Made by a program: the position numbers and the translations under genes. Under the pieces are notes generated by a model. That model saw only the letters and a list, made by a program, of their open reading frames with translations, ran no database searches and was not told the DNA's origin. 64,000 nt of DNA from Erysipelotrichales bacterium (lineage in GTDB: Bacteria > Bacillota_I > Bacilli_A > RF39 > UBA660). This document shows, piece after piece, positions 12,512 through 21,901 of this stretch; positions within the stretch are counted from its first letter, which is position 1, and each line of letters starts with the position of its first letter. The stretch spans positions 47,454-111,453 of the forward strand of contig JAFLUY010000004.1 of assembly GCA_022508565.1 (NCBI GenBank). Reading direction: 5' to 3'.

Positions 12512-15277
12512 TTATTCTTCTGTTTTAAATATTACAATTTTTGACTTAAGACTTTCTAACTCTTCTTTAAGATTTTTTATTTCATCTTTAAGAGTATTAA
12601 TATCTTTTATAAGAGAAGCAGCTTCTCCTTCGTGTGATTTAATCCAAGTATCTACTTCTTTAAGTGTATCGAAAGTATCTTCTAATTGTCCTTCTTCATT
12701 TACTAGGAAATTGATTTTGTCGTCTACATATTTGCGAGTGGAGATAACATCTGTATCAATATATAAATCAATATAATTATCTTCATCTTTTCTAACTTCT
12801 AACCCATTAGATAAGAATAATTCAATTATTTTTTTATCTCCTATAGCTGAATATTCAGATTTATCAGAAGTAAATATTATTTGATTAACGATATCGCTAT
12901 CTTCAGCAACTTTAGTTATTCCGCTAAGTTTACTAATATTATTAGTAATATTATTAAAAGTTGAATAATCGAATGTTAATACTTCACCATTAGGGCCGTC
13001 AAATTCTATACCTTGAGAAGAAGTATTTAAAACTCCATTTATTAATACATTTCCTTCATCTTTACCAATTTCGATATTATTATTTTTTATATTGATAAAG
13101 TCTTTAGGAAGTAATATATATTCATCAGTTGTGTATGTGACAGCATTATTTTGAATTACAAGAAGTTTATAAACGGTTACCTTTGATGTGTTTAATCTAT
13201 CTAATGCTACAAATTCTAATGTAAGTCTATCAGTTGTCCCCATCCATGCTATATCAGTACATGTTAATATATGCATTGTGTAATTACCTTCACAAACTTG
13301 TAATTTTATATTACCTGTATTTTTAATACTTTGATTAAAGTATGCATTAATAATATTATTTATATCCGCATCATAAATTTGTTGCTCTTTCTTTGTATCG
13401 ATCGTGAGCATATAAATTCTTGAATAAAGAGACAAATTTAAATCGGAAAGTTGTACACTTGATACTATTGAAAATGCTATATTTATTTCTGGATGATTGT
13501 ATTTAATTACAGTAAAAAATGGTTTACCTTGTACATAATTAATAAAACCTAATGTTGTACCTCCGTCAACGAAAAGGAGCTGTGCATTTGATGTACTGCC
13601 TTTGAGAATGATTTGGGCATCTTTATTTGTAGCATCCTTAATATAAGTATCATAATCAGAAACACTCATAAATGGAGAAGTGCCTGAATTAAAATCATAT
13701 AAACTTGTAGTATTACCAAAATAAAGAGGTATTACGACTATTTCATTCTCTGGCGGTGAAGTAATTGGCGTGCTCTGTACCAAATCGAAAATAATCGTTC
13801 TTTCGGGATGATCATATCTAATTACTTCAAAGTAGTATGAACCGTGTTTATTAACTATATAACCCAACTCTAATTGAGTATCTTTTCTCATATATAAGAC
13901 ATCGACAGTCGCGTCGGCCGCTTTTAGAATAGTTGATGAACCTTCTTCATATGCCTTTTGAAGCAAATTATAATCATTATAAGAAAATGTTAGTGTAGTA
14001 TCGCTACCTCCAAACGAATATAATTCGTCGGAATTTTGTTTCAATATAGGAATTATTATCGTCTCAGAAGATACTTCTTTTAATTCTTCCTTAGTAGCAT
14101 ATATTTCTTCAGCTTCTTTTTTAGGTAGATATTCCTCTGATTTAATAGAAGAGTCTAAAAAACCAACAATAGGATAACCAGCAAAACGAAAATAATCAGT
14201 ATTTGGGTAGATCCTATCTGAACCGAAAGCCAAATATAATCCTTTGGAAGGGCTAGAAATACTCAAAGAAGAAGAATAGAAATCGCCCCAAGACCCAACA
14301 TCACCAACGCCATCTTCACAACAACCAGAAGCAGGGAAGAATAGTTGTTTGGATTCATCTGTCTCCAATTTAAATAATCTACCATTTAATCCAGACACTC
14401 CATTATAATTAGTTACCCATTCTGTACTACATAAATTATACAATGTTTGGAATTCATCGGTAGTTGGCATCCTCCAATTTCCGCCCATATTTTGGACGCA
14501 CGCATCGTCTTCCGGAAGAAGAGTTGTCAAATTATCAGTAAAACCGTCTTTACCATATTCTGAATCGGTACAATATTTAGTTATATGATCATAAAGATCT
14601 CCCCATTTATAATCAGACCAATCTGAACTAAATTCTTTATTAACACCCACTTGAGATGCAGTATATCCTTCTATATCACCCCATTGGAAATATTTTATAT
14701 TGTCTTTCCAATTAGAATCCCATTCACTCACCCCGATAGGATATTTAGCCCATATACCCGCCTCGCCCATGTCTACATATTCATAGCCATTGGTAGGAAG
14801 TAACGACATGATTCCTAAAGATTCAATAACTTCTTTTATTTTAGAATTTACTTGATCTTTTGTATATATATCTATAGAATCATCATCTCCTTCTTCGATA
14901 TACATTTCTCTAACATTGAAATCTTCCTCAAATACTTCAACATAGTTTCCTTTTTCTGCTAATCCGTCTCTACTAGAAGTCTTTATCCAGTTTTCTTCAA
15001 CTAAGGAGTCTTTAATAGGAACTCCATCAGGAATGACATTTTCCCATTTCGGCATGAAAGTATATGTAGCTCCTTCATCTCTAACATAAACTTGCAAACC
15101 TTCATATATAAATAAAAATCCTGTATTCTTATCGTGTGGAAAAGATTCTACGTTTAATAAATCATCATAAGTGTTTACTACAAAACGACTATCGATAGGG
15201 TCACTCGCTCCTGCAACAAAAGTAGCTGGCATCGCTTTAGTAGCAACTCTAACTTGAGGAATAGTTTTTTCAGCCAT
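12512..15277 (-). CDS. tail-fibre-like protein (921 aa): shared N-terminal adaptor domain + FISUMP-like domain + C-terminal coiled coil
   Basis: N-terminus (PIDSRFVVNTYDDLL...FIYEGLQVYVRDEGATY...EENWIKT) is paralogous to the N-termini of the genes at 15510 and 20105. Residues ~250-380 (LLPEDDACVQNMGGNWRMPTTDEFQTL...FFPASGCCEDG...SWGDFYSSSLS...YFRFAGYPIVGF) follow the layout of the Fibrobacter succinogenes major paralogous domain (W-H/R-x-P-T/S-x-x-E-W, then FWSS..., then a basic-Cys tail). C-terminus: LKDEIKNLKEELESLKSKI heptads. Confidence 0.8.
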   Translation of the reverse strand: MAEKTIPQVRVATKAMPATFVAGASDPIDSRFVVNTYDDLLNVESFPHDKNTGFLFIYEGLQVYVRDEGATYTFMPKWENVIPDGVPIKDSLVEENWIKTSSRDGLAEKGNYVEVFEEDFNVREMYIEEGDDDSIDIYTKDQVNSKIKEVIESLGIMSLLPTNGYEYVDMGEAGIWAKYPIGVSEWDSNWKDNIKYFQWGDIEGYTASQVGVNKEFSSDWSDYKWGDLYDHITKYCTDSEYGKDGFTDNLTTLLPEDDACVQNMGGNWRMPTTDEFQTLYNLCSTEWVTNYNGVSGLNGRLFKLETDESKQLFFPASGCCEDGVGDVGSWGDFYSSSLSISSPSKGLYLAFGSDRIYPNTDYFRFAGYPIVGFLDSSIKSEEYLPKKEAEEIYATKEELKEVSSETIIIPILKQNSDELYSFGGSDTTLTFSYNDYNLLQKAYEEGSSTILKAADATVDVLYMRKDTQLELGYIVNKHGSYYFEVIRYDHPERTIIFDLVQSTPITSPPENEIVVIPLYFGNTTSLYDFNSGTSPFMSVSDYDTYIKDATNKDAQIILKGSTSNAQLLFVDGGTTLGFINYVQGKPFFTVIKYNHPEINIAFSIVSSVQLSDLNLSLYSRIYMLTIDTKKEQQIYDADINNIINAYFNQSIKNTGNIKLQVCEGNYTMHILTCTDIAWMGTTDRLTLEFVALDRLNTSKVTVYKLLVIQNNAVTYTTDEYILLPKDFINIKNNNIEIGKDEGNVLINGVLNTSSQGIEFDGPNGEVLTFDYSTFNNITNNISKLSGITKVAEDSDIVNQIIFTSDKSEYSAIGDKKIIELFLSNGLEVRKDEDNYIDLYIDTDVISTRKYVDDKINFLVNEEGQLEDTFDTLKEVDTWIKSHEGEAASLIKDINTLKDEIKNLKEELESLKSKIVIFKTEE

Positions 15278-21901: not shown

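Follow-up and report, generated by a model that had tools for sequence, protein, structure and literature searches.

Three minus-strand genes in a 64,000-nucleotide stretch of contig JAFLUY010000004.1 (positions 47,454 to 111,453; hereafter the window), catalogued under an Erysipelotrichales bacterium, encode proteins that begin with one common, collinear module of about 105 residues (the N-module), and each of these genes is preceded directly by a gene whose product ends in a second conserved domain of about 330 residues (the C-domain). The window holds three copies of each, arranged as g21921 followed by g20105, g16947 followed by g15510, and g15510, which carries both, followed by g12512 (Table 1). 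The same order is kept in all 23 distinct gene pairs that were collected. Because a C-domain-ending gene always lies directly upstream, it is more likely that the N-module joins fibre segments to one another than that it seats them on a common baseplate site, and we lean slightly towards a reading in which the N-module is a plug and the C-domain its socket, joining fibre segments in series or in branches.

Two module families and the order of their genes

Pairwise BLASTP of the N-termini (residues ~5-115) gave 41% identity between g12512 and g20105 (E 1.8e-19), 37% between g15510 and g20105 (E 2.6e-17) and 36% between g12512 and g15510 (E 3.1e-11), with Smith-Waterman z-scores of 20.5-35.7 against 1000 shuffles. 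The three-copy alignment keeps its register through 25 invariant columns, which include the motifs P-x-D-x-R, IY-x-G, VYV-x-DE and NW-x-K. An earlier note had reported this shared N-terminus and had proposed pairwise alignment as its check, with a merely compositional likeness as the contrary outcome; the BLASTP values, shuffle scores and invariant columns establish homology in a conserved register instead. A hidden Markov model (HMM) of the module, run against all six reading frames of the window, found three copies and no more (next best E 0.15), and it found no further copy in about 9-10 kb past either window end. The N-termini of g23227 and g26755 (26560..26721 and 29400..29553, minus strand) contain a 'PLD … YKG[MQ]I.S' core reminiscent of the N-module motif; as candidate further carriers they were rejected, since the similarity is marginal (hhalign probability 41%, E 3e-4).

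The window's copies belong to a large family. An exhaustive HMMER search of 1.84 billion representative proteins yielded 177 representative clusters at E<=1e-3, of which 34 reach E<=1e-10. In nearly all of the 177 the module occupies residues ~4-100 of proteins ranging from 66 to 2294 aa. The regions beyond it, compared in 130 representatives, fall into at least 43 unrelated clusters, among them coiled-coil fibres, collagen with Peptidase_S74, and domains related to g9577 and g2886, two window genes that themselves lack the module. The proposal of a conserved attachment module with interchangeable distal domains is thus borne out well beyond the window. The family emerged only from the exhaustive search: a word-indexed protein search with the three-sequence alignment returned nothing, scans of viral contigs with patterns from the window's own N-modules recovered no loci, an alignment of the central subfamily recovered only two, and a 45-sequence alignment was too divergent for pattern design. 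The N-module has no match in Pfam-A, PHROGs v4, NCBIfam or a PDB sequence search, and the C-domain none in the first three; both are uncurated families.

An AlphaFold2 model of the N-module (g20105 residues 1-115, from the 45-sequence alignment) has a small beta-rich core at residues 28-100 with a predicted local distance difference test score (pLDDT) above 90; the first 27 or so residues are of low confidence. The most conserved block of the family, P-x-D-x-R (residues 21-30), lies in a segment that the monomer model packs poorly (pLDDT 63), as expected of a docking segment that depends on a partner. Foldseek comparison with the PDB gave no match below E 0.5, the best being the collagen XV/XVIII trimerisation domain (E 0.5, non-significant, with a target-normalised TM-score of about 0.6), and the matches in BFVD were weak and confined to uncharacterised phage proteins.

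The distal parts of the three proteins, which the earlier note had described as completely divergent, are each shared with neighbouring genes of the window. The FISUMP-like or lectin-like domain of g12512 recurs in g23227 (51% identity), the 2232-aa g2886 has a copy of the g20105 distal domain (36% identity), and the C-terminal domain of g15510 recurs by BLASTP in g16947 (64% identity) and g21921 (46%). This last domain, earlier taken for a 320-aa beta-rich distal domain like any other, is the C-domain itself. In the first loci that were retrieved by way of the N-module (L022, L031 and L032), the gene immediately upstream always ends in it. Retrieval with the C-domain alone gave 12 viral contigs, 23 metagenome contigs, 2 GTDB genome contigs and MT835470.1, and in 37 of the 37 evaluable loci the next gene downstream, on the same strand, carries an N-module (one further locus is truncated, and two come from frameshifted assemblies in which the order is retained). 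Conversely, four loci found through distant N-modules (L046, L047, L048 and L074) have a C-domain-ending gene directly upstream, and the most distant N-module locus, L075, has a weak upstream match (E 0.03) in which the hallmark motifs remain. Altogether 39 pairs were collected, 23 of them distinct at 90% identity, and the rule holds in 23/23, with a stop-to-start gap of 5-32 nt in 22 of them.

Seven proteins carry both modules, always with the N-module before the C-domain. Since g15510 consists of nothing but these two modules and a short linker, it can be described as a connector. Both the window and the distant locus L048 contain the full chain of a C-domain gene, a connector and an N-module gene, and the contig that encodes P0155 and P0151 has the first two members. 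Across seven loci taken from 88-312-kb phages, the two cassette genes are the only open reading frames (ORFs) with BLAST-detectable similarity to any ORF of the window, so that the cassette is all that these loci share with it. The two partners also differ in polarity. C-domain proteins are variable N-terminally and conserved C-terminally, and N-module proteins are the reverse; a typical receptor-binding protein shows a pattern of conservation opposite to that of the C-domain proteins. Among the large fibre-like bodies to which the C-domain is joined are coiled coils, FISUMP-like domains and the N-module itself. The AlphaFold2 model of the C-domain (from g15510; pLDDT 89.8) is all-beta and has no significant match in the PDB by Foldseek.

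Readings of the module pair

On the reading we lean towards, a protein ending in a C-domain would receive the N-module of the protein encoded immediately downstream, so that fibres would be assembled from separately encoded segments. The window would then specify a two-part assembly, in which the virion-proximal g21921 offers its socket to g20105 with its plug and nonapeptide-repeat distal domain, and a three-part assembly, in which g16947 supplies the base and its socket, g15510 serves as a plug-socket connector, and g12512 forms the terminal piece with its plug, lectin-like domain and coiled coil. We infer the physical binding of N-module to C-domain, the trimeric state of the fibres, the end that faces the virion and the layout, which may be serial or branched. 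A broader form of the idea would make the pair generic and promiscuous, any N-module fibre fitting any C-domain and the connectors acting as extension pieces, which would allow serial or branched fibres of variable length to be built from horizontally exchangeable segments in gut phages of ~90 kb to 377 kb; we regard this as possible, though somewhat short of an even chance.

Several observations weigh against the pairing of plug and socket. The pairing does gain from the strong co-divergence of C-domain and N-module (Mantel r 0.79, 0/2000 permutations) and from nearest neighbours that agree in 12 of 23 pairs against 1.06 expected, but both this co-divergence and the adjacency itself would arise from simple linkage too. 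Where a subtype-specific lock and key could be predicted, the prediction failed: the C-domain of L046 is 75% identical to that of g15510, and its N-module is equidistant (42-46%) from the three N-modules of the window. A Rosetta-stone search among 214 family proteins found no fusion of a C-domain to a following N-module, and in P0092 and P0061, which carry internal N-modules, no C-domain is detectable upstream of the module. The g15510-g12512 junction, with its gap of 232 nt and a terminator-like hairpin, is unlike all other cassettes. The N-termini of g23227 and g26755, which may be remote superfamily relatives of the N-module, belong to genes that do not follow a C-domain gene. Two variable patches of the C-domain (model residues ~101-120 and 141-180) could be receptor-binding loops. 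Finally, about 81 kb of the 377-kb genome was covered.

The missing fusion, the failed prediction at L046, the linkage-like co-divergence and the variable patches together leave an appreciable probability, albeit a low one, to the view taken in the earlier note, in which the N-module is a baseplate anchor, g12512, g15510 and g20105 are three independent receptor-binding fibres on one baseplate socket, and the C-domain is one receptor-binding distal domain. An N-terminal module with swappable distal parts fits an anchor with a variable tip; the C-domain, always C-terminal, all-beta and variable in patches, looks like such a tip; and the subtype-specific pairing of N-module and C-domain predicted for L046 is not seen. 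A baseplate anchor nevertheless leaves unexplained both the adjacency in 23/23 cassettes across phages with unrelated neighbouring genes and the recurring order of C-domain gene, connector and N-module gene. Three paralogous 'receptor-binding' domains of 46-64% identity on one virion, conserved C-terminally on variable N-terminal parts, would be atypical for tips. No conserved candidate baseplate partner co-occurs in the sampled neighbourhoods, where the C-domain of the upstream gene is the only co-occurring partner; the candidate named before, g31760, has homologues only in jumbo phages, and none was found beside the cassette in the smaller module-carrying phages. A complex of several fibres, possibly branched, remains plausible for a 377-kb phage with more than a dozen fibre-like genes, and it is the single baseplate socket that lacks support.

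Adjacency might also reflect nothing more than the vertical inheritance of a two-gene host-range cassette, with the N-module serving as an N-terminal trimerisation or folding nucleus that has no specific partner. The collagen trimerisation domain is indeed the best fold match, and co-divergence would follow from linkage alone; the match is non-significant, however, fibres usually trimerise through C-terminal or intramolecular-chaperone domains (some N-module proteins carry Peptidase_S74 for that purpose), and vertical inheritance accounts neither for the sharing of the cassette alone between unrelated backbones nor for the connectors, which makes this explanation improbable. We give an equally small chance to the idea that the modules bind a third component rather than each other, or that the C-domain protein is an assembly factor for the downstream fibre and is co-transcribed with it for that reason. 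The spacing of 5-32 nt does suggest co-expression or translational coupling, but fibre chaperones are usually small and encoded downstream, whereas the C-domain sits on large fibre-like bodies, and no third conserved gene accompanies the cassette.

The fibre block and the phage that carries it

The window has a G+C content of ~29%, is phage-like in overall character and contains no detectable tRNAs. In one block on its minus strand, between 2886 and ~36574, genes for more than a dozen large proteins follow one another, and many of the products are fibre-like. In some of these Pfam recognises just BspA-type leucine-rich repeats (LRR), collagen and YadA-head repeats; its matches in the rest of the window are to exonuclease, glucosaminidase and glycosyltransferase domains. 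Identical proteins are found on the 377,382-bp contig ENA ERZ27293317 k141_1147735, where the window corresponds, reversed, to about 23.4-87.4 kb, and NCBI labels the window's proteins 'MAG: hypothetical protein J1F35_… [Erysipelotrichales bacterium]', from a metagenome-assembled genome (MAG). Because of the size of this contig and because homologues of g31760 occur only in jumbo phages and megaphages, the window appears to be part of an uncultivated huge (377-kb) gut phage, apparently binned into a bacterial MAG. Other carriers of the cassette include a 'Prevotella sp. CAG:1092' scaffold and a 'Mycoplasmatota' MAG, and such mixed labels are therefore unreliable evidence of the host.

Table 1. 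Features of the two fibre cassettes and the genes around them (positions in the window).
Feature	Position	Strand	Basis or remark
g12512, 921 aa: N-module, FISUMP/DUF1566-like lectin domain, long beta-rich region, C-terminal coiled coil	12512..15277	-	
Coiled coil, C-terminal, of g12512	~12515..12649	-	weak coiled-coil-type Pfam matches, visible heptad pattern
FISUMP/DUF1566-like domain of g12512, residues 167-376	14150..14779	-	
N-module (putative plug) of g12512, residues 1-107	14957..15277	-	HMM E 9e-27, BLASTP to the other two copies
Terminator-like hairpin in the 232-nt gap between g15510 and g12512	15335..15363	-	13-bp stem, then T-run
g15510, 470 aa: N-module, short linker, C-domain	15510..16922	-	
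C-domain (putative socket) of g15510, residues ~137-470	15513..16514	-	HMM E 2e-164
N-module of g15510, residues 1-110	16593..16922	-	HMM E 1e-31
g16947 ORF	16947..18899	-	probable true start at internal ATG 18821
C-domain of g16947, residues 321-650	16950..17939	-	HMM E 5e-167
g19053, 313 aa, function unknown, between the two cassettes	19053..19994	-	fibre-like 'GKIPKEYLPE' motif
Terminator-like hairpin closing the g21921-g20105 cassette, directly after g20105	20050..20075	-	with T-run
g20105, 598 aa in total	20105..21901	-	
Distal part of g20105	20105..21595	-	related to g2886 residues 1616-2110
Nonapeptide repeats of g20105, Cys/Asn-rich, ~18 copies	~20417..20926	-	
N-module of g20105, residues 1-102	21596..21901	-	HMM E 7e-35; AlphaFold2 core
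g21921, 417 aa: short N-terminal motif and C-domain	21921..23174	-	orthologous g21921-g20105 pair in L031
C-domain of g21921, residues 69-417	21924..22970	-	HMM E 3e-154

The individual fibre genes differ in how well their distal parts can be classified. The FISUMP-like character ascribed to g12512 rests on sub-threshold matches: residues 167-376 match not FISUMP but Lcl_C (E 0.0026, 18.5 bits against a cut-off of 34.9), and the corresponding region of the g23227 paralogue matches TIGR02145 (E 4e-5, 24.3 bits against a cut-off of 41.65); genuine PF09603 (FISUMP) matches occur in neighbouring tail genes of related phages. The coiled coil of the same protein, also proposed before, has no support beyond the weak matches and heptad pattern in Table 1. 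In g20105 the Cys-containing repeat has a period of nine and not, as first described, of eight, with autocorrelation peaks at lags 9, 18 and 27 and about 18 copies of x-x-x-C-x-N-N-I-[LF]. The 21 viral contigs that were retrieved with full-length g20105 match its distal domain only and lack the N-module, and thus this distal domain occurs on other N-termini. A copy of it forms residues 1616-2110 of g2886 (2886..9584, minus strand), a 2232-aa super-mosaic that also contains BspA-type LRR, collagen repeats and YadA-head-like repeats, the last related to residues 446-956 of g23227.

The start of the g16947 ORF probably lies too far upstream, because the orthologue P0155 begins MAKAKIVQL… at the Met equivalent to the internal start. 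The g16947 N-terminus, KIVQLKDIDTLENEYPVV, resembles by eye a short motif, NKII.LKDKD.N.L[FY]P[KQ]I, that is common to three consecutive fibre genes in the viral contig L001 (8269..11344), and the two may represent a second, distinct N-terminal attachment motif. g19053 contains neither module and has no family match. Terminator-like hairpins with T-runs number six in this region against 2.9 expected, and those after g20105 and in the 232-nt gap suggest that the fibre block is transcribed in sub-units.

Away from the cassettes, g31760 (31760..35170, minus strand, 1136 aa) belongs to phrog_29329, of unknown function, and is hypothetical in all annotations. Its distant homologues are found in Sphingomonas phage PAU (gp264), Tenacibaculum pT24, Chryseobacterium MA9V, Prevotella Lak and huge uncultured phages, and it may be a conserved component of large virions. 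For g31760, g35210 and g29706 as baseplate proteins, a PDB sequence search and the PAU and MA9V-1 annotations were uninformative. On the plus strand, 49383..61847 holds a further group of genes for large proteins, with products of 533 aa (YadA-head repeats) and then 452, 666, 937 and 950 aa; this second cluster is preceded by genes for a Peptidase_G2-domain protein and a glycosyltransferase, and a 3105-aa ORF follows just past the window end (L030 12963..22280). Neither the cluster nor this ORF contains an N-module or a C-domain.

Among the smaller carriers, those of 88-149 kb (L037, L040, L022, L032 and related contigs) share a syntenic block of ~650-aa, ~684-aa FISUMP-domain and ~1170-aa proteins, a C-domain gene and an N-module gene, beyond which lies a family-B DNA polymerase gene in convergent orientation, its product only ~23% identical to Salinibacter and Nostoc phage polymerases. 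They appear to be an uncultivated phage lineage without a deposited relative. A tblastn and blastn search of 50,697 deposited phage records with the minimal cassette returned no match, and the unannotated MT835470.1 is the only deposited record found to carry the pair. In L032, a 92-kb phage contig, an IS605 OrfB/TnpB-like gene with a Cas12f1-like TNB domain (11935..13161) lies directly after the cassette, between the fibre genes and the DNA polymerase. Stop-codon recoding was considered for L071 and rejected, as HMM matches there switch among all three frames and point to an indel-ridden assembly.

Comparison with known fibre systems

Modular fibres, whether branched or serial, are a known principle, and the advance here is therefore a new module family and architecture rather than a new concept. 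Host recognition by the abundant uncultivated gut phages, huge ones included, is almost wholly unannotated, and the fibre proteins described here belong to no curated family; the module pair is widespread in such phages, a huge one among them, and gives a directly testable assembly rule. If the pairing is correct, it would provide a sequence signature by which fibre modules, and the order in which they assemble, could be recognised in metagenomic phages, account for the shuffling of distal receptor-binding domains among phages of unrelated backbone, and define junctions for host-range engineering of the kind already carried out with the KP32 branching-domain/peptide pair. Were the pair also generic, it would amount to a new, fold-unrelated solution to the assembly of multiple receptor-binding proteins (RBPs) and would permit plug-and-play retargeting of these phages.

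In T-even phages, gene 38 lies directly downstream of gene 37. The gp38 proteins of T2, T6 and S16 carry a conserved N-terminal domain that attaches to the C-terminal tip of gp37, followed by a variable specificity domain, and the association between gp37 C-terminal and gp38 N-terminal subtypes has been used to argue for a lock-and-key contact (PMC3157838). The cassettes resemble this arrangement in that, in 23/23 distinct cases, a conserved C-terminal domain is followed in the next gene by a conserved N-terminus with a variable remainder, and the shorter N-module proteins (256-274 aa) are of gp38 size. They differ in that neither sequence nor fold similarity to gp37 or gp38 was found by PDB sequence search and Foldseek, in that the downstream proteins are often long and probably trimeric fibres whereas gp38 is a small monomeric adhesin, and in that connectors permit further chaining and the subtype-specific pairing predicted for L046 is not seen.

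A second comparison, with multi-tailspike systems of the CBA120 and G7C kind, had been drawn in the earlier note and holds in principle, although the position and fold of the socket differ. In CBA120 (TSP1-4), RaK2, phiK64-1 and phiKp24, G7C (gp66/gp63.1) and KP32 (RBP1/RBP2), several fibres or spikes of the one phage have a conserved N-terminal docking element in common. This element, which is either a conserved peptide or a D1 head domain (about 110 aa), attaches to the branching domain of another fibre; the primary protein alone has a baseplate anchor, and secondary RBPs may themselves carry branching domains and so give layered assemblies (PMC13352976; PMC10253068). A conserved N-terminal docking element with variable distal domains is common to both cases, which are analogous and not homologous. 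In the branched systems the socket is an N-proximal, T4 gp10-like XD domain, whereas the candidate socket here is a 330-aa C-terminal domain in which profile and Foldseek searches detected no relation to T4 gp10 or to the XD2/XD3 branching domains. The D1 domain of CBA120 is an alpha-helix with a six-stranded beta-sandwich (PDB 4oj5, 5w6h), and the N-module is not detectably of this type; against CBA120 TSP4 (7rfo), Foldseek gave only E 9.9. The phages differ as well, those with branched RBPs infecting Enterobacteria and those described here belonging, like their hosts, to uncultivated gut lineages.

The long tail fibre of T4, in which gp34, gp35, gp36 and gp37 are encoded separately by consecutive genes and joined end to end, offers a precedent for a serial layout, with no homology detected between its proteins and those of the cassettes. 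Each joint of the T4 fibre uses a different junction, whereas here one reusable plug and socket, together with a pure connector, would serve every joint. Such a shared junction, served by dedicated connector proteins, would set this system apart.

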